A stretch of 64,000 nt of DNA from Veillonellaceae bacterium (lineage in GTDB: Bacteria; Bacillota; Negativicutes; JAAYSF01), in NCBI GenBank assembly GCA_012523975.1, contig JAAYSF010000073.1, positions 416-64,415 of the forward strand, in the 5' to 3' direction. This document shows, in pieces, positions 4,853 to 51,470 of the stretch (the stretch's first letter is position 1; each line of letters begins with the position of its first letter). The position numbers and the translations under genes were made by a program. The notes beneath the pieces were generated by a model. It saw only the letters and a program-made list of their open reading frames with translations. It had not been told where the DNA came from and made no database searches.

Positions 4853-4874
4853 AATCGGTGCAGGAGGTAGTGTC

Positions 4875-5549
4875 ATGGCAGAATTAGAACTTAAACCGGT
4901 ACGTACCCGGATTTTAACTCCAGAAGATAACATTGTTGACGCAATTATAGAATATGCCCAAGATGATATTGGTCCCGATGATATTGTGTCGGTAGCAGAA
5001 AGTGTTGTTGCAATTACACAGGGGCAGGCTACTAGACCGGAAGAATTAAAACCGTCTTTTTTAGCTAAGGTTATGTGCCGGTTTGTACCGCAGAAGGGCA
5101 GTTTATCTAGCTGTTACGGCATGCAGGCCGCAATTAATGCAGAGGGTCAATGGCGGGTGTTTTTTGCCATGATTATGGGCTTTTTAGCTAAGATTATTGG
5201 TAAAGACGGCGTCTTTTACGAACTGGCCGGCAGACAAGCGGCCCTGATTGATGATGTTACCGGTACAATGCCGCCGTTTGATAAACATATTGTATACGGT
5301 CCGGACAATCCTAACGGAGTAGCTGAAGAGATCAAAAGCCGCTTGGGATGTTTTGGCGCAGCGGTTGCCGATGTTAATGACCTTAAACGGGCTGCAGTGC
5401 TGGGGATTTCATCTGGTTTGGACCCCGAAAGGTTGGCGCAGATCCTCATTGATAATCCCTTTGGCAATGCTTCTCAGAGGACGCCTATCGTTATTATCAA
5501 AAATTATGGAAAAGTTGAGGCAGCAGCACAGGCTAAAGCTTTGGGTTAA
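4875..5549 (+). CDS. CofE-like (F420-0:gamma-glutamyl ligase family, COG1478-like) protein of unknown function
   Basis: LKPVRTRILTPEDNIVDAII...DIVSVAESVV resembles the CofE-family N-terminus. Assignment is from memory of the family pattern. Confidence 0.4.
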   Translation: MAELELKPVRTRILTPEDNIVDAIIEYAQDDIGPDDIVSVAESVVAITQGQATRPEELKPSFLAKVMCRFVPQKGSLSSCYGMQAAINAEGQWRVFFAMIMGFLAKIIGKDGVFYELAGRQAALIDDVTGTMPPFDKHIVYGPDNPNGVAEEIKSRLGCFGAAVADVNDLKRAAVLGISSGLDPERLAQILIDNPFGNASQRTPIVIIKNYGKVEAAAQAKALG

Positions 5550-6612: not shown

Positions 6613-7377
6613 ATGAGATGCGGGATTGATTTAGGCAGTCGCAGCGTAAAATTGGTAGTAATGGACGGCGAAGAAATAAAGTTTGAAAAAGTTTATGAAA
6701 CCGTTGAATTTTATCGTAATTTTGGTCGACGAACCGACGAGGGTATGGTAGTCGACTTTGCTGCGCTTGAAATAGGTGAGGTAACGCAAGTTACGGCTAC
6801 CGGTTATGGCCGAAATACTATTGATATTGTCGGCGCGACAGTTATTGCGGAGCTCAAAGCCCATACTGCAGGTGCTATCTGGCAGACCGGCCTAGAAGAT
6901 TTCACTTTGCTGGATCTAGGCGGGCAGGATAGCAAGGTAATTAAAGTGCGCAAGGGCAAAATGGTAGGCTTTGAAACTAATGATAAATGTGCTGCGAGTA
7001 CAGGCCGCTACTTGGAAAACATGGCAACTGTTCTGGGAATCAGTTTAGCCGAAATGAGCAGCTATAGTGAAAACCCGGTCGAATTGAATGCCACTTGCGC
7101 AATCTTTGGTGAGTCAGAACTTATCGGCCGAATTGTTGAGGGTCATAGTATTTCGGCATTAGCTGCCGGTGTCAACTATACCATTTTTAAGCGGATTAGA
7201 CCGATGCTGACGGCTCTGGCGAGCGAGACTATAATATTTACAGGTGGGGTTGCCTTGGGTAAGGCTATTCGCGAACTGATTGAGCGCGAACTCCAAGTTA
7301 AGGTGGTTGTGCCGAAACATCCGCAATTGAATGGAGCAATCGGCTGTGCAGTATATCAAGCGAAAAAGAGGCGATAA
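6613..7377 (+). CDS. CoA-substrate-specific enzyme activase (BadF/BadG/BcrA/BcrD ATPase family, HgdC-like)
   Basis: N-terminal GIDLGSRSVK ASKHA phosphate-1 motif. About 254 aa, typical of [4Fe-4S] activases. Confidence 0.7.
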   Translation: MRCGIDLGSRSVKLVVMDGEEIKFEKVYETVEFYRNFGRRTDEGMVVDFAALEIGEVTQVTATGYGRNTIDIVGATVIAELKAHTAGAIWQTGLEDFTLLDLGGQDSKVIKVRKGKMVGFETNDKCAASTGRYLENMATVLGISLAEMSSYSENPVELNATCAIFGESELIGRIVEGHSISALAAGVNYTIFKRIRPMLTALASETIIFTGGVALGKAIRELIERELQVKVVVPKHPQLNGAIGCAVYQAKKRR

Positions 7378-7379
7378 AT

Positions 7380-9056
7380 GTGCTGCTGGGGATTGATGTG
7401 GGGGGGACTTTTACTGATGCTGTAATTATTGCATCGGGCAGGATATTGGCTAGCGCTAAGAGGCAAACTACGCATCACGACCTTCTGGAAGGTATTTTAA
7501 ATGTCCTTGATGATATACTTCCGGCTATTGACCAGTCAAAGCTTAAAAGGGTAGCTCTTTCTACAACTATTGTCACAAATGCGTTAATCGAAGGCCGGAT
7601 TGAAAAGGTGGGGCTGTGTCTTGTTCCCGGACCAGGGTTTGACACTAGCAAAATTATTCCCGCTCCGGCCTTTATATTGTCTGGTTATATCGATCATCGC
7701 GGTCGGGAAGTAAAAAAAATCGAAAAGTCCGAAATCCAGGATTTTTGCAGGCGCAGCGCCGATATCGACGTATATGCCGTTGTCGGTAAGTTTGCAGTGC
7801 GGAATCCTAAACACGAGACACTGATGGCTGAATGGATAAAAGATGAAGCTAAACCAAGCCATATAACAATCGGGTCGGCAGTTTCGGGCAGTCTTAATTT
7901 TTGGCGGCGGACTAACTCAGCCTATTTTAATGCGGCCGTTTGGAGGCAGTTTAGCAATTTTTCTGCGGCCGTTGAACGGGCGTTGTTGCAAAGAAAGATT
8001 AGTGCGCCGGTTTACATATTAAAGGCCGATGGGGGAACGATGCCGCTGACGGCAGCCAAAACCCTACCTGTAGAGGCGGTTTTCACTGGGCCGGCTGCAA
8101 GTGTTTTAGGTATTATGGCAATGTATAATTCAGATCGTCCAGCAGTATCGGTAGATATCGGCGGGACGACAACCGATATTGCCCTTTGGGAAAATGGCAA
8201 GCCGTTATTTTCATCACGCGGCGCAATGATAAAAGGCTTTCCCACCTCTATTCGTTCGCTTCGCCTGAAGTCAGTTGGAATAGGCGGCGATAGCTTTATT
8301 TGGCGTGAGAATGGTGAATTAAGAGTCGGGCCAATGCGAAAAGGTCCGGCTATGGCAGCCGGCGGGAACTGGCCAGCTTTATCTGACGCCATGATTGTGG
8401 CAGGTTTGGCTAGGTTTGGCGACAAAAATAGAGCCCTTCAGGCTATTTCTCAAGTAGCTTTACCAGGGCAGTCGCTAACTGACGCTGCCTGGGCGGTGCT
8501 GAATACTGCAGCTGAAATTGTCAAAAAAGCTATCAATGATATGATTGACGAGCAAGCTGCTGAGCCTGTTTACCGGGTTGAGGATGTTATAAAAGCTGCT
8601 CGGTTTAAACCTGAGACCCTGATTGGAGTAGGCGGCGCAGCTGGCGGTCTGTCGCCTGTTATCGCCAAGCAATTCGGGATTCCTTGCCAAGTGCCAAACG
8701 GCGCAATGGTAGCAAACGCAGTCGGAGCCGCGGTTGCGCGCCCGACAATTGATATTACGCTCCGTGCTGATACTGCTGAAGGCTATTATTCGGTAGCTGA
8801 ACTTGGTGTTAAGCAAGCTCTCGCCAACCGCAGGCTAAGTCTTTCGGACGCCTATCAATTAGCCGTTAAATATTTGCAAGAGCGGGCTCGCCAGGTCGGG
8901 ATAGACGCCTCAGATGTTGAGGTTGTTCAACAGGAAGAGTTTAATTTAGTGAGAGGTTTTAACTCGACTGGTAAGATAATTAGCTCTCGTGTCCAAATTA
9001 AACCAGGTGTACTTATGCCAATTGATGATAGCGGGGCAAAGGGGGTATTGGAATGA
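7380..9056 (+). CDS. Hydantoinase/oxoprolinase (HyuA N-terminal-like) family protein
   Basis: LLGIDVGGTFTDAV start and internal DIGGTTTD motif typical of hydantoinase A-type ASKHA ATPases. Confidence 0.6.
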   Translation: MLLGIDVGGTFTDAVIIASGRILASAKRQTTHHDLLEGILNVLDDILPAIDQSKLKRVALSTTIVTNALIEGRIEKVGLCLVPGPGFDTSKIIPAPAFILSGYIDHRGREVKKIEKSEIQDFCRRSADIDVYAVVGKFAVRNPKHETLMAEWIKDEAKPSHITIGSAVSGSLNFWRRTNSAYFNAAVWRQFSNFSAAVERALLQRKISAPVYILKADGGTMPLTAAKTLPVEAVFTGPAASVLGIMAMYNSDRPAVSVDIGGTTTDIALWENGKPLFSSRGAMIKGFPTSIRSLRLKSVGIGGDSFIWRENGELRVGPMRKGPAMAAGGNWPALSDAMIVAGLARFGDKNRALQAISQVALPGQSLTDAAWAVLNTAAEIVKKAINDMIDEQAAEPVYRVEDVIKAARFKPETLIGVGGAAGGLSPVIAKQFGIPCQVPNGAMVANAVGAAVARPTIDITLRADTAEGYYSVAELGVKQALANRRLSLSDAYQLAVKYLQERARQVGIDASDVEVVQQEEFNLVRGFNSTGKIISSRVQIKPGVLMPIDDSGAKGVLE

Positions 9057-10375
9057 CTGCCAAAAAACCGCTTGGTCTGGTGTTTTTCCCGGCCTTTGAC
9101 TGGGCAATAACGCCAACTCATCCCGAACGTCAGGAAAGACTCTTATATACGCGTGATCAGATTGTGGAAGAGGGTCTTTTAGACATGCCTGAAATCTGCG
9201 AGTATAGACCGCGGCTGGCCACGTATCAAGATATTGAGCGAGTTCATCTCGGAGTGCCTGATATAGCCTCTTTAATTACCGATGCTCACTTAGTGTCGGC
9301 AGGCGGGGCAATTACGGCAGCCGAGGCTGTATTGAAGGGCGAGGTGGCCCGCTCTTTTGCTTTAGTGAGACCTCCCGGTCATCATGCCATGAAGGTTGTA
9401 CACGGCACGCGGGGTTTTTGCACAATAAATATTGAAGCAATTATGGTGGAATACTTACGTAAATACTATGGCATTAAGAAGGTCGCCATTGTTGACACTG
9501 ATGTTCATCATGGGGACGGGACCCAAGATATTTTTTATCATGATCCTGATACGTTATTTATTTCATTTCATCAGGATGGTCGTACATTATATCCTGGAAC
9601 AGGTTTTATGGATGAGATGGGCAGCCCTAACGCCTATTGCTCTAATATTAATATTCCGCTGCCGCCTGGGACAACTGACCAAGGTCTTCATTATGTACTT
9701 GACAATCTAATTGTGCCGATGTTAGCTGATTTCAAACCTGATCTCGTAATTAACTCAGCCGGGCAGGACAACCATTACAGCGATCCTTTAGCCAATATGG
9801 CTATAACTGCCCAAGGTTATGCCCGGTTGGCCGATAAGCTTAAGGCCGATATCGCCGTTTTAGAAGGTGGGTATTCGATTGAAGATGCCTTGCCCTATGT
9901 TAATGTTGGCATTATTTTGGCGATGGCTAATTTGGACTATCGAAAAGTTGTTGAACCGCATATTGAAGATTGCCCGAACCAAAGCGAAAAAACTACTTTG
10001 TATATTAGACAAATAGTCGATAAATGGCGCGGGATTTGGGCAGCCCGTGATTCTCTCAGGCGCGAAGCGATAGCGAAGGCTGGTGACTTCTGGGTCAGCC
10101 GGCGCGGCATATACTATGATGACAGCGGCATTAATGAGGAACGCCGTGAACGAGTGCGGGTGTGCCCGAAATGCTCTGGTTACTTCACTGTCGAGACAGA
10201 GGCCGAAGGATATGGTTTTGGGGCGAAGTCGGCATTTGCGGCTGTTGTTCCGCGGGATTCCTGCCCGCGTTGCAGAAAACAAGCCAAAGATGAAACGATT
10301 AAGGCAAGAAACCAGGGCCGCTATGGCCATTATTTTATCCAAGATAAGCAACAGGACGTTTTTGAGAAGTTATAG
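9053..10375 (+). CDS. Histone deacetylase/acetoin-utilization (AcuC/HDAC) family protein with C-terminal zinc-ribbon extension
   Basis: HHGDGTQDIFYHDPDTLFISFHQ catalytic-core motif. The C-terminal ~90 aa carry CPKCSG...CPRCRK. Confidence 0.7.
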   Translation: MTAKKPLGLVFFPAFDWAITPTHPERQERLLYTRDQIVEEGLLDMPEICEYRPRLATYQDIERVHLGVPDIASLITDAHLVSAGGAITAAEAVLKGEVARSFALVRPPGHHAMKVVHGTRGFCTINIEAIMVEYLRKYYGIKKVAIVDTDVHHGDGTQDIFYHDPDTLFISFHQDGRTLYPGTGFMDEMGSPNAYCSNINIPLPPGTTDQGLHYVLDNLIVPMLADFKPDLVINSAGQDNHYSDPLANMAITAQGYARLADKLKADIAVLEGGYSIEDALPYVNVGIILAMANLDYRKVVEPHIEDCPNQSEKTTLYIRQIVDKWRGIWAARDSLRREAIAKAGDFWVSRRGIYYDDSGINEERRERVRVCPKCSGYFTVETEAEGYGFGAKSAFAAVVPRDSCPRCRKQAKDETIKARNQGRYGHYFIQDKQQDVFEKL

Positions 10376-10404
10376 CGATAAGAAACAATACTTAGGAGGT
10401 AACC

Positions 10405-11148
10405 ATGACAAGAGTCGATGGACGCGATAAAGATGAACTGCGGAAAGTGAAAATAACACGCGATTATTTAAAATACGCTGAGGGGTCAGTTTTAATAGAA
10501 GTCGGCAATACAAAGGTTATTTGTGCGGCAACAATTGAAGACAAGGTACCGCATTTTTTGAAGGGTACTGGCGAAGGATGGATTACAGCTGAGTATTCAC
10601 TTCTGCCGCGGTCGACTCAGACGCGTAACGCCCGAGAGTCGGCGAAAGGCAAATTAACCGGCCGCACGCATGAAATTCAGCGGCTGATTGGCCGAGCGCT
10701 GCGCAGTGTTGTTGATTTGAAGGCGTTGGGGGAAAAGACTATCTGGATTGACTGTGATGTTGTTCAGGCTGATGGCGGGACAAGAACAGCTTCTATTACC
10801 GGAGCTTTTGTTGCCTTGGTTGATGCTGTCGATAAAATTTATTCAGATTCGGCCAAACCGTTCCCAGTTAAAGATTTTCTTGCGGCAATTAGTGTAGGAA
10901 TTGTCGGCGAAGATGCTGTGCTTGATTTATGCTATGAAGAAGACTCTAATGCTGTTGTAGATATGAATGTTGTCATGACGGGGTTTGGGCAATTTGTTGA
11001 GGTCCAAGGTACTGGTGAAAAGCACCCGTTTACCAGGAAGCAGTTTAATGACATGCTGGAGATTGGTGAAGCCGGTGTGAATAGACTGATTGACTATCAG
11101 AAAGATATTTTAGGACCGCTATCATGGAAGGTGGGGCGTGAAGGGTGA
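10405..11148 (+). CDS. rph: Ribonuclease PH
   Basis: Full-length match to RNase PH ([10 protein letters not shown]...[10 protein letters not shown]...). Confidence 0.9.
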
Positions 11149-37215: not shown

Positions 37216-37298
37216 TTATAATTCAATGAGGATATATTGGTAAAAAATCACATAGAATGCACCGAGCCTTGAAAATGCTAATCATATGAGGTGATAAG

Positions 37299-38345
37299 AT
37301 GTCCATGCCGAAAATTCTTGGGGTGGCTACAGCGGTGCCGAAACATGCTGTTAACCAAGACGAGGTAAAGCAATTTGTCGCTGCTATGTTTAACGACAAT
37401 TTCCATGGGCTTGGGCGAATGTTGTCCATTTTTGATAATGGCAATATAAAAACTCGGTACTTCTCTTGTCCGCTCGATTGGTATTCGAAACCCCATTCGT
37501 TCAATGAAGCAAATAACCAGTTCGAAAAAACGGCGCTCGAGCTTGCAATCAATGCGGTCTCGTCGGCAATTGAACGTGCTGGGGTAGATCCCCAAGATAT
37601 TAGCGGCGTGGTATTTGTAACTTCAACGGGTATTACTACTCCTACCTTAGATGCAAAGCTTATTCAGAAGTTAGGCTTATCTTTTCATTCCGTTCGTCTC
37701 CCTGTATGGGGATTGGGCTGTGCCGGCGGGATAAGCGGGCTGGCTCGAGCAGCTGAGATGGCTAATTCGCTGCCGAGTAGCTATGTAGTAGTTGTTTCGG
37801 TTGAATTATGCAGTATTACCTTTCAGCAAAACGACTTTTCTAAGTCAAATTTAGTTGGCACAAGTATTTTTGCTGATGGAGCTGCCGCCGCAGTGTTGGG
37901 GTTAAATGGGGCGGGGCCGGAAATAATCGGAAGCTACAGCACCTTGTTTCCGGATACTGAGGACATTATGGGATGGGATGTTGTTGAAACAGGGCTGAAA
38001 GTTCGCTTTTCCCGGGATATACCAAGTATTATTAGGCGGCATCTGCCCAAGTTATTAGATGAGGCCTGCAGCTGCTGGGGGCTGACACAGGCAGAAATAA
38101 ATCATTATATTGTTCACCCGGGCGGGGCCAAAGTCCTTACGGCCTATAACGAAAGTCTTGGCCTTATTAACGGTGAGCTGGCTGAAGCTGAGGACATCCT
38201 TAAACACTATGGCAATATGTCGAGTGCGTCAGTTTTCTTTGTTTTAGAGCAGTTTTTAGCAAACACTTCTGCTAATAATAGCTACGGCGTTATGTTGGCG
38301 CTAGGGCCTGGTTTTAGCGCAGAGCAGGTGTTATTCCGATGGTAG
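37299..38345 (+). CDS. bpsA: Type III polyketide synthase (chalcone/stilbene synthase family, BpsA-like)
   Basis: Active-site GLGCAGG Cys motif. About 348 aa. Followed by an ICMT-family methyltransferase, as in B. subtilis bpsA-bpsB. Confidence 0.8.
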   Translation: MSMPKILGVATAVPKHAVNQDEVKQFVAAMFNDNFHGLGRMLSIFDNGNIKTRYFSCPLDWYSKPHSFNEANNQFEKTALELAINAVSSAIERAGVDPQDISGVVFVTSTGITTPTLDAKLIQKLGLSFHSVRLPVWGLGCAGGISGLARAAEMANSLPSSYVVVVSVELCSITFQQNDFSKSNLVGTSIFADGAAAAVLGLNGAGPEIIGSYSTLFPDTEDIMGWDVVETGLKVRFSRDIPSIIRRHLPKLLDEACSCWGLTQAEINHYIVHPGGAKVLTAYNESLGLINGELAEAEDILKHYGNMSSASVFFVLEQFLANTSANNSYGVMLALGPGFSAEQVLFRW

Positions 38346-38854
38346 TAACTTGTAGTCTTATCTTAGTGGCTGTTATAATTATTGAAAGAATCTTTGAAAT
38401 TAGGCTGGCGGCTCGTAATCGAAGAATTGTATCAGCAATGGGGGTCAAAGAATACGGTCGCAAGCATTATCCCTTGATGGTGCTGCTTCACACTGGCTGG
38501 CTGTTTGGGTGGCTGTCAGAAGCGCTGTTATATAACCGTTTGAGTGAAGTATGGTATGTATGGCTTGCTTTATTTTTACTGGCTGAAATTTTGCGCTATT
38601 GGTGCATATTAAGTTTGGGACAATTTTGGAATACTCGGATTTTTGTTGTTCCGGGTACCCGCCTTGTACAGCGAGGTCCTTATCGGTTTATGACTCATCC
38701 TAATTATTTGGCGGTATCGGTTGTTTTATTAAGTGTGCCGCTTATCTTCTCTGCTTATATAACGGCAATTGCTGCAACAATCTTGAACGCAGCCTTGCTG
38801 TTGTGCATTCGTATACCCGCTGAAGAACGGGCTCTCAAAAGTATAAGCAAATAA
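38339..38854 (+). CDS. bpsB: Isoprenylcysteine carboxyl methyltransferase (ICMT) family membrane methyltransferase, BpsB-like
   Basis: Multi-TM 171-aa protein with a C-terminal ICMT-like motif (...HPNYLAV...EE..L). Start overlaps the PKS gene end. Confidence 0.65.
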   Translation: MVVTCSLILVAVIIIERIFEIRLAARNRRIVSAMGVKEYGRKHYPLMVLLHTGWLFGWLSEALLYNRLSEVWYVWLALFLLAEILRYWCILSLGQFWNTRIFVVPGTRLVQRGPYRFMTHPNYLAVSVVLLSVPLIFSAYITAIAATILNAALLLCIRIPAEERALKSISK

Positions 38855-41908: not shown

Positions 41909-41928
41909 ACAGCGTCGTGGTCACCGGA

Positions 41929-41964
41929 CAAAAAAACGCTCTACCCAAATGGGTAGGGCGTTTT
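41929..41964. terminator. Bidirectional intrinsic terminator (A7-cgctctaccc-aaat-gggtagggcg-T4)
   Basis: 10-bp stem flanked by an A-run and a T-run. Terminates yitT (+) and the rSAM/Cys-rich-peptide operon (-). Confidence 0.65.
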
Positions 41965-41976
41965 CAGTACAAGCAT

Positions 41977-42369
41977 TTAATATGGGCGGCAGTCAGGTTT
42001 GCATTGGCGGGGACGGCAGGACGGATTGCAAGTGCTGGCAGGGCGGCATTGGCGCGGGTAACAATAGCGGGGGTAGCAGTAGCTTGGGCCACACCATCTA
42101 GGATTGCAGTAACGCGGATTGCAGTTGGGCGCGCAGCGCGGATTACAGCTAGGGCTGCAGGTAGGATAGCAATTTGGTCTGCAGGATGGTTTACAGCCAG
42201 GCGAGCAGGCCGGATTGCAGGTAGGTGAGCAATTTGGCCTACAGGGGGTTCCTGTTGGGTAACAGCCTATTTGTCTTTCATTGTCATAATAGTCAATTTC
42301 ATCTTCCCATTCGGCTATTTCGGGGTCTTCCCATTTAGGGCGTCTTGTGTCTTCAAACATAAATTTCAT
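41977..42369 (-). CDS. Cysteine-rich repeat peptide (about 130 aa) with acidic N-terminal leader-like region and about 21 Cys in (C-x-P-x)n / (C-x-P-x-x)n repeats
   Basis: ORF translationally coupled to the upstream rSAM gene (ATGA overlap at 42366-42369; alternative ATG at 42378). The (CxPx) repeat is read from the translation. Confidence 0.6.
   Translation of the reverse strand: MKFMFEDTRRPKWEDPEIAEWEDEIDYYDNERQIGCYPTGTPCRPNCSPTCNPACSPGCKPSCRPNCYPTCSPSCNPRCAPNCNPRYCNPRWCGPSYCYPRYCYPRQCRPASTCNPSCRPRQCKPDCRPY
42000..42240. repeat. Degenerate 12-nt periodic tandem repeats (GCAGGNNGGATT-like) encoding the CxPx tetrads
   Basis: Recurring ggattgcag motifs. Generates a spurious Ala/Arg-rich + strand ORF (41887-42228). 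Confidence 0.55.
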
Positions 42370-43610
42370 TCCTCCCATTTACCAGTATAAGGGTTATACG
42401 AGCACCCACATGAGCATGCCAACCACCGTTTGTTTGGGTCGCTGCCTTGCGCTAGCGGCCGGCAGTCGCTGCAGGCATAGCGAAACTCACAATCTTTGCA
42501 TTTCTCTACATGATCCTTGGTTGTACGCCAACATTGCTGTAAAGGCTGTCCGCGAAGTACCTCCGTAAGAGATTCCGTGAGTATGTTTCCGCATATTTGG
42601 CTGCGGGCAAATATGCAGGGAATAATGTCGCCAGTCGCGGTGACAGCTATTTTCCCTGCTAGGCAGCTGTGATGCATCTGGGCTTTGGCAAAGCTCTCGG
42701 CATCGGTATAAAACGGAGGTTTAATAGGTTGCTTAGTATACATTGAAGGAATTAATTCTTTGTCATCACCGCGGCCTGTTGGTCTAACAACGTCAGGGGG
42801 GTTGACTTCGACGCCGAGTTGCTGGCAGAGATCCATGATTTTCTGTGGCTCGGTTTCATTTGCTTTCATTATAATAGAAGCAATGCGCAAAGGAATCTGG
42901 GCTGCAATGATCTTTTTTATGGCTGTAAGGGTCTTGTCAAAGCTGCCTTGATTAAGGGTAACTTTATCGTGAATTTCACTGCAGTCGGAGTAAATCGTTG
43001 TAGCGATGCTTACATCGTTTTCTTTGAAAAAATTAATGCAAGAATCGTCGACTAGGGTAGCATTAGTGAATATTTCAATAAATTCATAGCCGGATTTTTT
43101 AGCTTTAACTACCAATTCGCGCCATTTTGGGTACATCAGGGGTTCGCCCCCAATAAGCTGAATGGCAGTTGCGCCGGCTTGACGAGCCTCATCGATCAGA
43201 CTCAGCCATCTTTCATGGGGTACACAATCCTTAGTTTCGATTACCGGACCGCTGGTAGCGTAACAGTGCAGGCAGCGATTATTACACTTGGATGTCAGCT
43301 CTAACCAGAGAAATTCAAGTCTGATGTCATCTGCTACCTGTACTTCGGCAGTCGGCGCTTTTATCCCCGGGTCAAAAGTATAGAGCGAGCCAACACCTTT
43401 TCCGGTGAGATCATCAAGAAAACTTAAGTATTTCTTACTATTGGAATTAGTAACATCAAGCAATTTATCCAGAGAGTGTTCCTGACAGGCCAACAGCAAT
43501 TGAACAGCGCCATTGTTTATCGAATAAACTTTCCCGCTTTGGAAGTCATAAATAGCACCGCGTTTTGCTCCCTTAACCAGTCTGCAGTCCTTATTCAATC
43601 GGTAATACAA
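42366..43610 (-). CDS. Radical SAM enzyme with N-terminal PqqD-like RRE domain and C-terminal SPASM/twitch Cys-rich domain (RiPP maturase-like)
   Basis: CNNRCLHC CxxxCxxC motif. N-terminal ~90 aa with the PqqD-like pattern (KVYSINNGAVQLLLAC). C-terminal Cys cluster (CxxxxxC...CxxCxxC...C). Confidence 0.75.
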   Translation of the reverse strand: MYYRLNKDCRLVKGAKRGAIYDFQSGKVYSINNGAVQLLLACQEHSLDKLLDVTNSNSKKYLSFLDDLTGKGVGSLYTFDPGIKAPTAEVQVADDIRLEFLWLELTSKCNNRCLHCYATSGPVIETKDCVPHERWLSLIDEARQAGATAIQLIGGEPLMYPKWRELVVKAKKSGYEFIEIFTNATLVDDSCINFFKENDVSIATTIYSDCSEIHDKVTLNQGSFDKTLTAIKKIIAAQIPLRIASIIMKANETEPQKIMDLCQQLGVEVNPPDVVRPTGRGDDKELIPSMYTKQPIKPPFYTDAESFAKAQMHHSCLAGKIAVTATGDIIPCIFARSQICGNILTESLTEVLRGQPLQQCWRTTKDHVEKCKDCEFRYACSDCRPLAQGSDPNKRWLACSCGCSYNPYTGKWEE

Positions 43611-43694
43611 GATGGATTCCCTCCTTTAACTCTGGGCCTGGTACATAATATGCAAAATTGTCGGCATGGTGTGTCTTTGTGTTAATAAAGTATG

Positions 43695-43723
43695 TTGACA
43701 AGTTTTTGTAAATGGTATATAAT
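43695..43723 (+). promoter_or_regulatory. Sigma-A-type promoter TTGACA-N17-TATAAT for tRNA-Gly
   Basis: Exact consensus. About 30 nt upstream of the tRNA. Confidence 0.6.
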
Positions 43724-43753
43724 AAATTTCGTTGTCAGGGGTCGAAGTAAAAT

Positions 43754-43828
43754 GCGGAAGTAGCTCAGTGGTAGAGCATCGCCTTGCCAAGGCGAGGGTC
43801 GCGAGTTCGAATCTCGTTTTCCGCTCCA
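43754..43828 (+). tRNA. tRNA-Gly (anticodon GCC)
   Basis: Acceptor gcggaag/tttccgc, anticodon loop ttGCCaa, encoded CCA. Confidence 0.9.
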
Positions 43829-47500: not shown

Positions 47501-49201
47501 GTGGATTATGCCGTAAATATCATCACGGTGATTCAATTCTTTTTTGCCATTGTCATCGGCATGTACTTTCTGAATCTTCTGCGGTCGCAACAAGGTAACC
47601 GTGTGGCAGTAGAGCGTGAATCAAAGAAGGAAATGGACAAGCTGCAAAAACTTAGGGAGGTTTCATTAACCGAACCGCTTGCGGAAAAAACCCGTCCTAC
47701 CACATTTGCCGAAATCATTGGTCAGGAAGAAGGATTGAAAGCGCTACGAGCCGCGCTTTGCGGCCCAAATCCGCAGCACGTTCTTATCTACGGACCGCCG
47801 GGAATAGGCAAGACAGCAGCTGCAAGGCTGATTTTAGACGAAGCCAAGCGTAATCCGCTGTCACCCTTTAGTGCAGCAGCCAAGTTTATTGAAATGGATG
47901 CTACAACAGCCAGATTCGATGAACGCGGCATCGCTGATCCACTGATTGGTACAGTCCATGATCCAATTTACCAAGGCGCTGGACCTATGGGGGTTGCGGG
48001 CATTCCGCAGCCAAAACCAGGTGCTGTTACGAAAGCACATGGCGGGTTATTGTTCATTGATGAGATCGGTGAACTCCACCATATTCAAATGAACAAGCTG
48101 CTTAAGGTACTTGAAGACCGAAAGGTATTTCTGGAAAGCTCGTATTATAATAGCGAAGATACAAATATCCCTACCCATATTCACGATATGTTTCAAAACG
48201 GCCTGCCGGCTGATTTTCGTTTGGTTGGGGCAACAACACGTACACCGCAGGACATACCGCCGGCAATAAGGTCGCGTTGCGTAGAAATTTTCTTTCGCCC
48301 GCTTAATGCGGAAGAAGTGGGTATTGTAGCAAGAAATGCTGCCCAAAAAGTCAAATTTGAAATTGAGGATTCGGCTATCGAGGTAATAAAGAATTATGCT
48401 ATGAATGGCCGTGATGCAGTAAATATTGTTCAGATTGCGGCGGGAGTAGCTTTAAATCACCATGGTCAAAAAATAACCGGGCAGGACGTCGAATGGGTAG
48501 TAAACTTCGGCCAATATAATCCCCGGCCGGATAAGAAGGTGCCGCTTAAGCCGCAAATAGGTTTTGCTAATGGCTTAGCGGTATATGGAGCCAATATTGG
48601 TATGGTCATGGAAATCGAAGTTTCAGCAGTTCCTAACCCCTGTGGAACTGGAAAACTGACAGTTACAGGGGTTATTGATGAAGAGGAAATCGGAGTACCA
48701 GGCCGAACCATGCGGCGTAAAAGTATGGCCAAAGGTTCGCTAGAAAATGTTCTAACTGTGTTGGCTAATCGATGCGGTATTGATTATCACAAGTATGATA
48801 TCCATGTTAATTTTCCGGGAGGCGGACCGATTGATGGACCGTCGGCCGGTATAACAGTCGCTGTTGCCATCTATTCTGCAGTTATGGGCATTCCGATCGA
48901 CAATCAGGTGGCCATGACTGGAGAAATATCAATCCGGGGACTAGTCAAACCGGTAGGCGGCGTTAGTGCTAAGGTCAATGCTGCAATCCAAGCTGGTGCT
49001 AAGAAAATAATAATACCACAAGAAAACTGGCAGGAAATATATCGAAATATGGAGGCACAGGTAATTGGTATAAACACGCTGGAAGAGGCGTTGGAGCATG
49101 CTCTGCTGAAAAACGCGGATGCAGGAAGGGATGACAAAGCAGCCTTGCAACCAGAGGTTTTGGCAGCCGCCGGGGTTCCCAGTGTGTTTAGTCCAAGTTA
49201 A
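47501..49201 (+). CDS. lonB: Lon-like ATP-dependent protease LonB (sporulation-type, N-terminal TM)
   Basis: N-terminal TM helix, AAA+ Walker A GPPGIGKT, C-terminal Lon Ser-Lys protease domain (DGPSAGIT). GTG start after a GGAAGGAGGG RBS. Confidence 0.85.
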   Translation: MDYAVNIITVIQFFFAIVIGMYFLNLLRSQQGNRVAVERESKKEMDKLQKLREVSLTEPLAEKTRPTTFAEIIGQEEGLKALRAALCGPNPQHVLIYGPPGIGKTAAARLILDEAKRNPLSPFSAAAKFIEMDATTARFDERGIADPLIGTVHDPIYQGAGPMGVAGIPQPKPGAVTKAHGGLLFIDEIGELHHIQMNKLLKVLEDRKVFLESSYYNSEDTNIPTHIHDMFQNGLPADFRLVGATTRTPQDIPPAIRSRCVEIFFRPLNAEEVGIVARNAAQKVKFEIEDSAIEVIKNYAMNGRDAVNIVQIAAGVALNHHGQKITGQDVEWVVNFGQYNPRPDKKVPLKPQIGFANGLAVYGANIGMVMEIEVSAVPNPCGTGKLTVTGVIDEEEIGVPGRTMRRKSMAKGSLENVLTVLANRCGIDYHKYDIHVNFPGGGPIDGPSAGITVAVAIYSAVMGIPIDNQVAMTGEISIRGLVKPVGGVSAKVNAAIQAGAKKIIIPQENWQEIYRNMEAQVIGINTLEEALEHALLKNADAGRDDKAALQPEVLAAAGVPSVFSPS

Positions 49202-49411: not shown

Positions 49412-49442
49412 AAAATAAGCCCTCGCTAAGAGGGCTTATTAA
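49412..49442. terminator. Bidirectional terminator hairpin (ataagccctc-gctaa-gagggcttat)
   Basis: 10-bp stem flanked by A-run and T-rich sequence. Lies between convergent genes. Confidence 0.6.
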
Positions 49443-50913
49443 TTTGCAACATATTTCTAAACTCATCTCCTGTAAGTGATTCTTTATCCAAGAGTATGTC
49501 GAGAATTTTAGCAGCTGTTTCTTGCTGAGTTATAAGCACAGATCGAACATAATTTTCAACGTCTCTTAGTATTTCACTCATAGTTGAGTGCAGCAGCTCC
49601 GGCGGCAAGCTGTCAGCTGAGACAATACCTAAGCTCGACATCCCGCCCTGAATAATTTGTTTAGCTAACTCAGTGGCCTGATTAAAGTCATTTGACGCGC
49701 CGGTACTGCGGTTGCCAAGCGTTAATTCTTCTGCAACGGCTCCGGCTAAGGCGACAGCAATTTTTTTCTTTAGTTGATCTAAGGTATACAAATAAATATC
49801 ATTTTCTTGCGTTTGCCTTACATAGCCCAAAGCATTGCTACGAGAGGCTACATTAATAGTTGCGACCGAGCCCGGCTTTGAGATTTCACTAAGCAGGGCA
49901 TGCCCAATTTCATGGACGGCAATACGCTGCTTTTCTTCCGGACTCGGCAGGCGATCAAGTTTTTCGCCCATAATTACCTTATCGATAGCACTTCTAAGAT
50001 GGTGGGGCAATATCTGGTGCTGGTCTTCACGCAACGCTAAAATTGCGGCCTCATTGGCCAGACTTTCAAGATGGGCACCGGAAAAGCCCATTGTTGCGTC
50101 TGCAATTTCCTCGAGGCAGACATCTTCAGCCAATGGTTTATTCCTGGTATGCAAAGCCAGAATCTGCAGACGACCTTTTTTATCAGGCAAATCCACTTTA
50201 ACCTGCCTGTCAAAACGCCCTGGCCGCAGCAGAGCGGGATCAAGCATATCAGGACGATTAGTTGCGGCAATTATTAACAATCTTACAGTTTCGTCTGAGG
50301 CTAAACCGTCCATTTGAACTAGCAGCTCGTTGAGCGTTTGTTCATGCTCCATATGACTATTAGCCTCACCGCGCTTGCCGCCTAATATTTCAATCTCGTC
50401 AATAAAAATGACGGCACTTTGTTTCCCTTGTTTTCTCGCTATGGTTTTGGCCTGACTGAATAATTGACGGATTCGTTTGGCACCGACCCCAACATACATC
50501 TCAACAAATTCTGAACCGCTCGCAGCCAGGAATACTGAATCGGTATAATGGGCGGCTGCCTTGGCCAGCAATGTTTTTCCCGTGCCGGGCGGGCCATTTA
50601 GCAAAATGCCCTTTAGCGGTCTTATTCCTAACCTTTTGATACTTTCAACATCTTTAATAAACTCTAAAGCCTCGCGCAATTCATTTTTGGCCACATCCTG
50701 GCCGCCAATATCGTCGAGACTAACCACACTGACCGTTGTCTCTTTATGCGGAGCGGCAAACGATTTTCCGCCTTGGCGCATATTATTAAAATAGAGGATA
50801 GCGCCTATAAATGCGGCGAAAAAAATAAAGGGTAGTATATTTATTCCCTGCCACACAAGGAATGCCGTTAATGCAATGACGATACCGGCGGCGATTTCTT
50901 TGGTATACATCAT
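49426..50913 (-). CDS. Short FtsH-like AAA+ zinc metalloprotease (AAA domain plus M41 HEIGH peptidase, lacking the large extracytoplasmic domain)
   Basis: N-terminal TM hairpin. Walker A GPPGTGKT, second region of homology, HEIGHAL zinc motif. 495 aa versus about 600+ for canonical FtsH. Confidence 0.7.
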   Translation of the reverse strand: MMYTKEIAAGIVIALTAFLVWQGINILPFIFFAAFIGAILYFNNMRQGGKSFAAPHKETTVSVVSLDDIGGQDVAKNELREALEFIKDVESIKRLGIRPLKGILLNGPPGTGKTLLAKAAAHYTDSVFLAASGSEFVEMYVGVGAKRIRQLFSQAKTIARKQGKQSAVIFIDEIEILGGKRGEANSHMEHEQTLNELLVQMDGLASDETVRLLIIAATNRPDMLDPALLRPGRFDRQVKVDLPDKKGRLQILALHTRNKPLAEDVCLEEIADATMGFSGAHLESLANEAAILALREDQHQILPHHLRSAIDKVIMGEKLDRLPSPEEKQRIAVHEIGHALLSEISKPGSVATINVASRSNALGYVRQTQENDIYLYTLDQLKKKIAVALAGAVAEELTLGNRSTGASNDFNQATELAKQIIQGGMSSLGIVSADSLPPELLHSTMSEILRDVENYVRSVLITQQETAAKILDILLDKESLTGDEFRNMLQINKPS

Positions 50914-51470
50914 TTCACCTCCGGTTGGCCGGCTTGGCGGGGAACAACTATATACATATCGGCGTCGGCTTTTTTTAATCCTAAATAAACATTAACAGAG
51001 TCTACATAAACTTGAGCTTCGACACCATTAACTGCGGCCTTTTGTACAATTTGCTCAGCCATAGAGGCAAAGTTGCCTGTAGCAATACCTTCCTGAACAA
51101 ATAAATGGACATTATAATACACTTGTTCTAATTCGGGCGTGCGGTTATCCTTTATGACCACGCTGAACTGGTTATCCCCCAAGATAGCGGCAGCACCTTC
51201 ATAAACGGTTTGGTAAGTTTTCTGCAGGTTCTTCACATTAGTTAATGAAATGTGAAGTTTGGCTGTACCGCTGATTTTGTTATTACTATCTACATAAAAA
51301 GAATCTATGCCATTAATGTTGTTAAGCACCTTCGCTAAAGGTTTATCGACTGCGTACCGCTGCCATAGAAATTGCCCTCCGCCTAAAATAATTAGCGTCA
51401 GGATAATAGCAGCTAGCACGACAGATAACCGGTTTTTATTAATGTTCACTATAGGGTACCTCCTTTGCAC
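50910..51470 (-). CDS. Hypothetical single-pass membrane protein (186 aa), co-transcribed with the FtsH-like gene
   Basis: N-terminal TM helix. ATGA overlap with the downstream FtsH-like gene. Confidence 0.5.
   Translation of the reverse strand: MQRRYPIVNINKNRLSVVLAAIILTLIILGGGQFLWQRYAVDKPLAKVLNNINGIDSFYVDSNNKISGTAKLHISLTNVKNLQKTYQTVYEGAAAILGDNQFSVVIKDNRTPELEQVYYNVHLFVQEGIATGNFASMAEQIVQKAAVNGVEAQVYVDSVNVYLGLKKADADMYIVVPRQAGQPEVK

Follow-up and report, generated by a model that had tools for sequence, protein, structure and literature searches.

Here, we describe a two-gene unit on the minus strand of a 64,000-nucleotide stretch of DNA from a Veillonellaceae bacterium (the whole stretch is called the window below), in which a radical S-adenosylmethionine (rSAM) enzyme with a SPASM domain is encoded first and a small Cys-rich peptide second. 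We propose that the two genes are an enzyme-substrate pair of the kind that makes peptides synthesized on the ribosome and modified after translation (RiPPs), and that the pair modifies Cys-x-Pro (C-x-P) units of the peptide during sporulation. The probability of this reading, in which we infer both the chemistry and the timing, is put at about 0.5. The two genes have the following features.

41977 to 42360, minus strand: precursor peptide gene, 127 amino acids plus stop, absent from the metagenome gene calls
42265 to 42360, minus strand: acidic leader of the peptide, residues 1-32, net charge -8, with the pattern PKW-x-x-PE-x-x-x-W ... ER ... (I/V)G
41980 to 42264, minus strand: basic core of the peptide, residues 33-127 (95 amino acids), net charge +12, with 21 C-x-P triads and 22 Pro
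42370 to 42375, minus strand: Shine-Dalgarno sequence GGGAGG for the peptide, inside the 3' end of the rSAM gene
42366 to 43610, minus strand: rSAM/SPASM peptide maturase, 414 amino acids, TTG start
43341 to 43610, minus strand: PqqD-like RiPP recognition element (RRE), about residues 1-90, assigned from the topology of an AlphaFold2 (AF2) model, fold matches and matches of the family to PF05402
43263 to 43286, minus strand: CX3CX2C cluster motif CNNRCLHC (C109, C113, C116), invariant in enzyme alignments A1 (which includes 17 Sporomusaceae enzymes) and A3 (44 relatives of 30-42% identity)
42402 to 42665, minus strand: SPASM domain (PF13186) with C316, C332, C371, C374, C380, C383 and C403

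The peptide was taken as 127 amino acids from the ATG at 42360 (MFEDTRRPKW...) because this codon is properly spaced from the Shine-Dalgarno sequence (9 nt after GGGAGG) and its Met aligns with the starts of homologues (MSEDTKRPKW... in the closest genome). An earlier annotation made from the letters of this DNA, hereafter the sequence-only reading, had described an open reading frame (ORF) of about 130 amino acids joined to the enzyme through an ATGA overlap. The overlap exists (ATG at 42369), and the longest reading of the frame begins at 42378 (133 amino acids), but the likely start lies 5 nt past the enzyme stop codon. The acidic leader and the 21 Cys of that description were confirmed, and all 21 Cys are followed by x-Pro. 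The 20 Cys-Cys spacings are 4 (12 times), 5 (six times), 6 (once) and 7 (once), in agreement with the reported drift from tetrads to pentads. The tetrad spacing is real, but the element that defines the core is the C-x-P triad, which had been overlooked. A 12-nt periodicity of the core DNA was also claimed and did not hold up: Tandem Repeats Finder gave no 12-nt repeat and reported a 15-nt unit in 2.1 copies at 42052-42083, so the periodicity sits at the protein level. For the peptide itself, AF2 predicted no stable fold, with a predicted local distance difference test score (pLDDT) of 37.6.

The pairing is strongly conserved. We compared 80 genome loci (labelled L0xx), found through relatives of the enzyme, for a co-oriented neighbouring ORF with at least three C-x-P. 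Such an ORF was present in 63 of the 80 loci, compared with 4 of 508 size-matched control windows from the same loci, and it lies downstream of the enzyme or, in a second set of loci, upstream. When the Cys of 43 C-x-P precursors were pooled, 608 of 621 (98%) were followed by x-Pro. Residues +1 and +3 and the Cys spacing (3-9, mode 5) vary freely across these precursors; about 38% of the residues at +1 are Trp, Phe or Tyr, with Gly, Ala, Ser, Asn and Arg frequent there as well, and Arg stands at +4 in 4% of units and is commoner at +3. The number of units ranges from 10 to 28 and varies even among close relatives. For example, the core repeats read (CWPRQQ)n in Pelosinus, (CFPRQ)n, (CQPSWSPCRPNQPIG)n in Sporomusa and (CRPCPPSQ)n in a paralogous group. 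Enzymes of 30-40% identity are found in Patescibacteria, Methanosarcinales, Bathyarchaeota, Thermoproteota, Woesearchaeota, delta- and gammaproteobacteria, Cytophagia and Clostridia, and these also adjoin C-x-P ORFs, in which the rule holds for 148 of 160 Cys. From Sporomusa to archaea, only Cys and the Pro two residues on are conserved. The reach of the family far beyond sporulators had escaped the sequence-only reading.

Within Sporomusaceae, the precursors share more than the triad. A leader consensus was obtained from 36 of them, PKW(E/D)xPE(M/I)xxW followed by an acidic run, (E/D)R..(I/V)G and then C.P(S/T)x(S/T)PC.P, and no signal peptide was detected on precursors of this type. The mean charge of the family precursors is -8.95 in the leader and +8.95 in the core, giving a net charge of 0.0 +/- 3.9, and the pooled cores contain 24.6% Pro, 18.4% Cys, 11.3% Arg and 8.9% Gln, with Asp plus Glu at just 0.4%; since they come from related sequences, these figures characterise the family and do not count as independent trials. 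When 5.8 billion proteins were searched with the peptide, only 3 homologues came back, which fits with gene callers skipping such precursors, and the gene calls of JGI metagenome 3300062814 list the enzyme and no gene at the peptide ORF.

In the same protein set, the enzyme gave 858 matches. The best 120, with 60-86% identity, belong to Sporomusa, Pelosinus, Propionispora, Lucifera, Methylomusa and Dendrosporobacter, and the annotations, where these close relatives have any, are generic or wrong ('PqqA peptide cyclase', 'AlbA', 'GTP 3',8-cyclase'). An exhaustive search of representatives gave 594 enzyme clusters (50% identity) at E <= 1e-30, mostly with full-length alignments. The close enzyme group is limited to Sporomusaceae-type genomes, and in about 40 loci of this type the enzyme is divergent from tRNA-Gly-tig-clpP, as in the window. 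Some decayed or missing peptide genes apart, every spore-forming member of the Negativicutes examined has the pair. Judging from this gene order, the Sporomusaceae pair is a vertically inherited, syntenic core locus and not an island. No protease, exporter or immunity gene is conserved beside it, and no accessory gene downstream is shared by more than 11 of 53 Sporomusaceae loci.

The enzyme has the architecture expected for such a pair. Its TTG start lies 8 nt downstream of AGGAGG, and its sequence matches Radical_SAM (PF04055, 6.5e-18), a check proposed with the sequence-only reading, and SPASM (PF13186, 2.8e-8), in keeping with the rSAM motif and the Cys-rich C-terminal region which that reading had pointed out. 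The seven SPASM Cys, the CX3CX2C motif and a GGE motif are invariant across the 44 relatives, and no eighth invariant Cys was found among them. The seven-Cys pattern here is compatible with an open site at auxiliary cluster I, such as CteB has. The PqqD-like character that had been ascribed to the first 90 or so residues is supported by the family and by the fold, but not by the window sequence itself: PF05402 (PqqD) did not match the N-terminus of the window enzyme, and it matched 14 of 36 homologous N-termini (best 1.6e-10). A profile search of the PDB with this domain gave no match above threshold, with winged-helix and TbiB1 entries below it. In the AF2 model of the enzyme (mean pLDDT 71; high in residues 1-77 and in the barrel, low at 275-300 and 372-414), the N-terminal domain is predicted as four strands followed by three helices at pLDDT 70-90. 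Foldseek against the PDB placed SkfB, SuiB, CteB and TigE on top with about 410 aligned columns each, corresponding to the whole length, and all four are RRE-bearing peptide maturases. The matches to anSME, PqqE and MoaA cover only about 320 columns, and the top PDB sequence match is the thioether synthase SkfB (2.8e-15). Family homology together with topology and fold matches therefore supports a PqqD-type RRE. With the CX3CX2C motif, the seven-Cys SPASM domain, the predicted RRE and an adjoining co-oriented precursor that has a leader and a Cys core, the comparison supports the architecture of an RRE-dependent rSAM/SPASM RiPP maturase of the sactipeptide/ranthipeptide type, as the sequence-only reading had suggested. 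Two Cys in the RRE, C9 and C42 (window positions 43584 and 43485), are invariant in the 17 Sporomusaceae enzymes and not in the wider family.

The proposed link to sporulation comes from the promoter region and from the lineage. Two elements lie upstream of the enzyme gene.

43642 to 43653, minus strand: 12-mer GCATATTATGTA, a -10 box (CATA-N3-T) like those of sigma-K/E, matching exactly in the window and in 34 loci
43668 to 43674, minus strand: ACACACC, a -35-like 'AC' element, from counts over 39 aligned promoters

Each locus has a single copy of the 12-mer, and in every case it stands ahead of whichever gene of the pair comes first; it precedes the peptide where the peptide leads (L040) and, in L016, the peptide alone. 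Apart from the promoter element, the intergenic region is unconserved. In the 39 aligned promoters, a C/A-rich CAC(A/C)C is located 15-19 nt upstream of the 12-mer. In more divergent lineages, AC...CATA-N3-T is retained while the middle triplet changes (CATACAAT, CATAGAAT, CATAGTAT, CATATAAT, CATATGAT), and Pelosinus has a second upstream copy, CATATTATA. The relaxed CATA-N3-T pattern was present within 200 nt ahead of the operon in nearly all loci, and its background in the same loci is estimated at about 1 per 17 kb of strand. Sigma-K promoters of C. difficile have 'AC' at -35 and CATATAAT at -10, and the -10 boxes of sigma-E and sigma-K are alike (PMC3789822); the window matches this C. difficile consensus with a CATA-N3-T(A) -10 box and 'AC' about 16-18 nt upstream. 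We infer from these matches a mother-cell sporulation promoter of sigma-K/E type, more likely sigma-K, from which transcription would start about 7 nt downstream of the 12-mer, near 43635. A sigma-A reading of the 12-mer was rejected, as its conserved flanks GCA/GTA and the -35 'CAC' misfit TTGACA/TATAAT. When a second copy of the 12-mer was sought in the window as a sign of a regulon, a single match with one mismatch was found inside a GNAT gene, no more than chance could give. The start codon of the enzyme is TTG or GTG throughout the 30 loci inspected, whereas the peptide has an ATG behind a strong Shine-Dalgarno sequence, which would favour an excess of substrate over enzyme.

Sporomusaceae have been described as the sole sporulating family of Negativicutes (PMC9827899). 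The sequence-only reading had offered a RiPP or else a spore-associated structural protein. The two need not exclude each other: the pair is a syntenic core locus of sporulating Negativicutes with a sigma-K/E-like promoter, and the comparison suggests that both may hold.

In Pelosinus, a Coat_F spore-coat gene (PF07875, 1.3e-26; 10068-10547, plus strand, in L022, and present in five other Pelosinus loci) is located about 2.8 kb downstream of the cassette, with a conserved ATGAATAnAAT in its upstream region. In the window, a type III polyketide synthase gene (Chal_sti_synt N and C) followed by an ICMT-family methyltransferase gene (37299-38854, plus strand) lies about 3 kb from the cassette. 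This gene pair matches the dquA/dquB alkylpyrone cluster, which was reported to be specific to sporulating Negativicutes (PMC9827899). Upstream of the synthase gene, at 37251-37258, CATAGAAT with ATATA about 15 nt before it resembles a sigma-E-type promoter.

The cassette also occurs in several variant forms. A second, paralogous cassette is present in L021, L026, L030, L031, L050, L016 and L049, with the peptide upstream, a (CRPCPPSQ)n core, the leader MYEDNDMRPVYSPEIVDW and a different upstream sequence. One Sporomusa metagenome-assembled genome carries both L014 and the paralogous L049, and a stretch of N breaks one paralogous copy, whose contig bears the label Ruminiclostridium sufflavum. 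In L056, L058, L060, L061, L071 and L073 (archaeal, deltaproteobacterial and Cytophagia loci), the peptide is upstream and the C-x-P units are in the middle of a precursor that ends in a conserved amphipathic helix (e.g. ...IDEITAKVERITAEIETLRKRIAPK). This arrangement suggests that the terminal helix may serve as a follower recognition sequence rather than a leader. In Woesearchaeota (L074, 3507-5951, plus strand), four or five tandem C-x-P precursors lie upstream of the enzyme; the one at 4856-5299 has a twin-arginine translocation (Tat) signal, matching TIGR01409 above its cut-off, and its neighbours share an RRDF(I/L)RKAG N-terminus. The Tat signal implies that modification in the cytoplasm would precede export. 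Beside the Patescibacteria pairs stands one of two conserved HExxH proteins (HEFGH or HEIMH; about 270-300 amino acids), which have no Pfam family and may be leader peptidases. Their genes are located as follows.

L066, 7559 to 8455, minus strand, and L070, 5074 to 5883, minus strand: Patescibacterial HExxH genes, with homologues in L054, L055, L057, L059, L063, L065, L067, L069 and L079

These variants bear on an alternative in which the product is a secreted cationic RiPP with an antimicrobial or signalling function, similar to a sactibiotic or a quorum-regulated ranthipeptide, and plays no structural part in the spore. In that case, the acidic leader would be an anionic pro-piece which neutralises a toxic basic core until release. 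The cancelling charges of leader and core fit this idea, as do a core rich in Pro, Arg, Trp and Cys, the possible leader peptidases beside the Patescibacterial pairs, the Tat signals of Woesearchaeal precursors and the best PDB match, SkfB, which makes a sporulation-linked killing factor. However, the Sporomusaceae pair has no conserved protease, exporter or immunity gene beside it, its precursor lacks a signal peptide, and its locus is a syntenic, vertically inherited core instead of a variable island. We consider a secreted product improbable. Release at mother-cell lysis would reconcile it with the proposed modification of C-x-P units during sporulation.

For the chemistry of that modification, thioether formation is the most likely candidate, although we hold it at somewhat less than even odds. 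It is favoured by a Cys-rich substrate, by a fused RRE, by a complete SPASM domain without an eighth Cys for auxiliary cluster I, and by sactisynthases being the nearest solved relatives. In the mechanism we propose, the fused PqqD-like domain would bind the acidic leader through the PKW..PE...W motif, and the rSAM/SPASM core would move along the disordered, Arg-rich core of the peptide, making one local modification per Cys-x-Pro triad. A single local event per triad is expected because only Cys and Pro are conserved and units are freely gained or lost, and this pattern argues against the nested hairpin bridges of classical sactipeptides. The Cys sulfur, held at the open site of auxiliary cluster I, would join a carbon of the triad as a short-range thioether. 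Candidate acceptors are the Pro at +2 or the C-alpha of residue +1, where Gly occurs; the usual acceptors Asp, Glu and Thr are nearly absent from the core. A ladder of small rings would result. In Sporomusaceae, the operon would be read from the sigma-K/E-type mother-cell promoter, and the product would be made late in sporulation and may end in or on the spore, or be freed when the mother cell lyses. A bolder version of the proposal, in which C-x-P would mark a new, widespread RiPP class with an unprecedented Cys-centred reaction (e.g. formation of a three-residue Cys-to-Pro thioether ring) and the cationic ring ladder would be an enzymatically cross-linked structural or protective component of the spore surface in diderm spore-formers, seems unlikely to us.

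The Cys may instead be oxidised and not cross-linked, with hydrogen abstraction at C-beta giving a thioaldehyde that would hydrolyse to formylglycine or cyclise to a 5-thio-oxazole; the peptide would then become a poly-aldehyde cross-linker or a metal binder of the poly-thiooxazole kind. The sulfatase motif C-x-P-x-R, recognised by the SPASM enzyme anSME (PMC10114670, PMC13638132), has C-x-P at its core, and the anSME structures 4k37-4k39 are significant fold matches (E about 1e-8). There is also an rSAM precedent, SbtM, which turns a peptide Cys into a thio-oxazole, and the invariance of only Cys and Pro fits a Cys-centred reaction with Pro shaping a turn. Against this, the Arg of the sulfatase motif is rare at +4 and commoner at +3, the anSME matches cover the core only and anSME lacks an RRE, and anSME is not among the best 25 of 78 NCBIfam models for the window enzyme. 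In anSMEcpe, the two auxiliary clusters are ligated by eight Cys in total, compared with the seven invariant Cys here. Moreover, Ser never replaces the triad Cys, although anSME-type enzymes accept Ser. We regard Cys oxidation as about as improbable as the secreted product.

Considerably less probable is a carbon-carbon cross-link of the triceptide/WprB type, which would join the +1 and +3 side chains across the central Pro (e.g. Trp, Tyr or Phe to Arg) and leave the Cys to serve elsewhere, for example in metal binding or disulfides. WprB joins Trp-C5 to Arg-C-gamma at a repeated W-P-R (PMC11851443), and the Pelosinus cores are (C-W-P-R-Q-Q)n while many others contain C-(F/Y/W)-P-R; WgkB is also among the better NCBIfam matches across the family (best 1.5e-33). 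However, positions +1 and +3 are hypervariable, with aromatics in little more than a third of units at +1 and Gly, Ala, Ser and Asn common there. The window peptide has two Y-P-R units in its 21 triads, distant relatives lack the aromatic or Arg pattern, and the nearly universal C-x-P rule is left unexplained. In addition, WprB is a twitch enzyme without auxiliary cluster I and with a separate RRE, whereas a full SPASM domain and a fused RRE are found here. Least probable of all is a metallothionein-like peptide that binds metal or Fe-S clusters through free thiols while the enzyme acts on another substrate or makes a minor change. In favour of it, Cys accounts for 18% of the core, the ligand-free peptide is disordered, and anaerobes need large amounts of metals and Fe-S clusters. 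Against it, the enzyme and peptide adjoin in bacteria as well as archaea whichever gene comes first, the leader is conserved, the RRE is fused to the enzyme, metallothioneins use C-x-C and C-x-x-C and not an invariant Pro at +2, and the Cys spacing varies from 3 to 9.

Several observations weigh against a C-x-P-modifying pair that works by thioether formation during sporulation. First, with regard to the chemistry, a thioether and other Cys-centred reactions cannot be told apart by sequence, the acceptors of known C-beta/C-gamma thioethers (Asp, Glu and Thr) are nearly missing from the core, and no precedent for a Cys-Pro link was found. The closest curated models are mixed and include the heme enzymes AhbD and NirJ, C-C cross-linkers and sactisynthases, and a leader peptidase or exporter is absent beside the pair. 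Second, with regard to the timing, CATAtTATG within the 12-mer reads as a 4-1-4 palindrome, and an operator function is therefore conceivable. Phylogeny confounds the limitation to sporulators, and distant relatives occur in non-sporulating bacteria and archaea. The 12-mer was also sought before the Pelosinus Coat_F gene near the cassette and was not found. Third, the peptide gene is decayed or missing in some Sporomusaceae (L018, L023, L039, L043). In L018 (Sporomusa silvacetica, about 7230-7330), the peptide leader is kept and a stop comes ahead of any core, and in L023 (about 7240-7400) an in-frame stop lies within the leader. These broken genes indicate that the enzyme can outlast decay of the peptide, unless the repeat collapsed in assembly.

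When compared with known systems, the pair most resembles SCIFF with its maturase CteB/Tte1186 in function, as a minimal lineage-wide cassette without an exporter. Both are two-gene cassettes of a small Cys-rich peptide and an RRE-rSAM-SPASM enzyme, both are lineage-wide core loci without an exporter or protease or a known physiological role, and CteB matches the fold of the window enzyme over its whole length (5wgg/5why). However, the SCIFF peptide has about 45 amino acids and six Cys, in contrast to 127 amino acids and 21 C-x-P units in the window peptide, which follows its enzyme, unlike in SCIFF, and whose core lacks Thr, Asp and Glu acceptors. SCIFF models were not among the best 25 NCBIfam matches of the enzyme, the listed matches are far below cut-off, and the peptide gave 0 matches. 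Local modification of repeated units has precedents in PapB on C-x3-D, NxxcB on N-x-x-C, TigE/TvgB on TVGG and WprB on W-P-R. In the freyrasin pair PapA/PapB and in NxxcA/NxxcB, a short motif is repeated, a single rSAM-SPASM enzyme is used, the number of units can vary, and each copy of the motif is thought to receive one local modification, as proposed here. The motifs differ (C-x-P here), no curated model is common to them, and the present precursors have no fixed acceptor other than Pro, unlike PapA and NxxcA. WprB and the triceptides likewise use a repeated three-residue unit with a central Pro (W-P-R), and W-P-R is present in every unit of the Pelosinus cores, but the invariants here are Cys and Pro.

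Three further families are similar in concept or fold. The CXXX-repeat system (target TIGR04117, maturase TIGR04115) also combines an rSAM/SPASM maturase with Cys at every fourth residue, a spacing which applies to 12 of the 20 intervals in the window peptide and is not the mode in the family. The window peptide did not match TIGR04117, and a Woesearchaeal precursor reached 16.2 bits against a cut-off of 50; TIGR04115 was absent from the listed matches of the window enzyme, the 44 relatives and 8 distant enzymes. The CXXX-repeat cassette has a third 'modification system protein', which is absent at the window locus. anSME/AtsB is likewise a SPASM rSAM enzyme with a similar core fold which acts on Cys in a C-x-P context, but it has no RRE and its substrate is a folded sulfatase with C-x-P-x-R. 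The units here do not follow the sulfatase motif C/S-x-P/A-x-R, since C-x-P makes up 98% of them and Arg at +4 only 4%. Finally, grasp-with-spasm (TIGR04193) is the best NCBIfam model for the window enzyme, at 118.5 bits and below its cut-off of 175, and the match covers mostly SPASM and the C-terminal region. The TIGR04193 family sits in graspetide loci of Bacteroidetes (PMC8939145), and no ATP-grasp ligase was found among the genes neighbouring the window cassette.

The Pfam and NCBIfam scans took in the window enzyme, the 44 relatives, the 8 distant enzymes and 11 precursors. No NCBIfam model reached its cut-off among the listed matches, which were the best 25 of 78 models for the window enzyme, 25 of 67 families for the 44 relatives and all matches at E <= 1e-25 for the 8 distant enzymes. 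Across the relatives, the best E-values (about 1e-43) were given by TIGR04053, StsB and AhbD. The window peptide matched no Pfam or NCBIfam family, and the 11 precursors gave no match except the Woesearchaeal TIGR01409 (Tat) and the sub-threshold TIGR04117. SCIFF, CcpM, CXXX-repeat and anSME maturases did not appear in the lists for the window enzyme or its relatives, and membership of SCIFF, CcpM, CXXX-repeat, anSME and grasp-with-spasm was rejected, as no curated cut-off was reached. The relation to Haft-type pairs floated in the sequence-only reading was thus not borne out, CcpM and the CXXX-repeat maturase being absent from the best 25 of 78 models, while its view of an uncharacterised system was upheld. 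As far as sequence comparison goes, the pair is known in kind, as an rSAM/SPASM maturase with a Cys-rich precursor, and it fails membership of every named family that could be checked. We found no description of an rSAM/C-x-P family in the searchable literature; relative to this literature and the curated libraries, the C-x-P motif, the charge-balanced precursor, the sporulation-type promoter and the spread in Patescibacteria and archaea appear new, having not been described.

The cassette is bounded on both sides in the window.

41929 to 41964, either strand: bidirectional intrinsic terminator serving the peptide gene (minus) and the convergent yitT (plus)
43695 to 43828, plus strand: boundary outside the cassette, a perfect sigma-A promoter with tRNA-Gly(GCC), divergent from the cassette

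A terminator scan gave a match at 41956-41941, and the stretch 41925-41972 on the minus strand folds at -20.1 kcal/mol (z = -5.9). With an A-tract before the stem and a U-tract after it, the strong hairpin should act in both directions and end both the peptide gene and yitT. On the other side, the perfect TTGACA-17-TATAAT promoter (43695-43723) precedes tRNA-Gly(GCC) at 43754-43828, and the divergent arrangement of this promoter and tRNA recurs in the roughly 20 loci checked. Both boundaries had been recognised in the sequence-only reading, but the promoter-like element of the cassette itself, separate from the tRNA promoter, had been overlooked. The neighbours are ilvD, the gene of the membrane protein YitT, tRNA-Gly, tig and clpP, with no transporter or peptidase next to the cassette among them, as had been stated, and no sulfatase gene was found near it. 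An Rfam scan of the leader region gave the tRNA alone, with no riboswitch or other known RNA. Farther away, a gene for an FtsH-like protein with AAA and M41 protease domains and a 186-amino-acid ORF without a Pfam family that precedes it form an opposite-strand insert (49426-51470, minus strand) between lonB (47501-49201) and the next large plus-strand gene.

In conclusion, if the proposal is true, the peptide would be a family-wide product of sporulating Negativicutes, with a standing like that of the SCIFF peptides of Clostridia, which are still unexplained. It would differ from SCIFF in having a clear sequence rule, to modify every Cys-x-Pro, and by this rule the small ORFs that go unannotated by the hundreds in Patescibacteria, methanogens and other archaea would be linked to their enzyme. 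Gene callers systematically miss such precursors, as judged from the lack of a call at the window peptide ORF and the few homologues in the protein set, and a C-x-P scan beside SPASM enzymes would recover them. A new rSAM reaction could also be defined, and a function could be given to a late sporulation pair of the diderm spore-formers, whose spore envelopes are poorly known.

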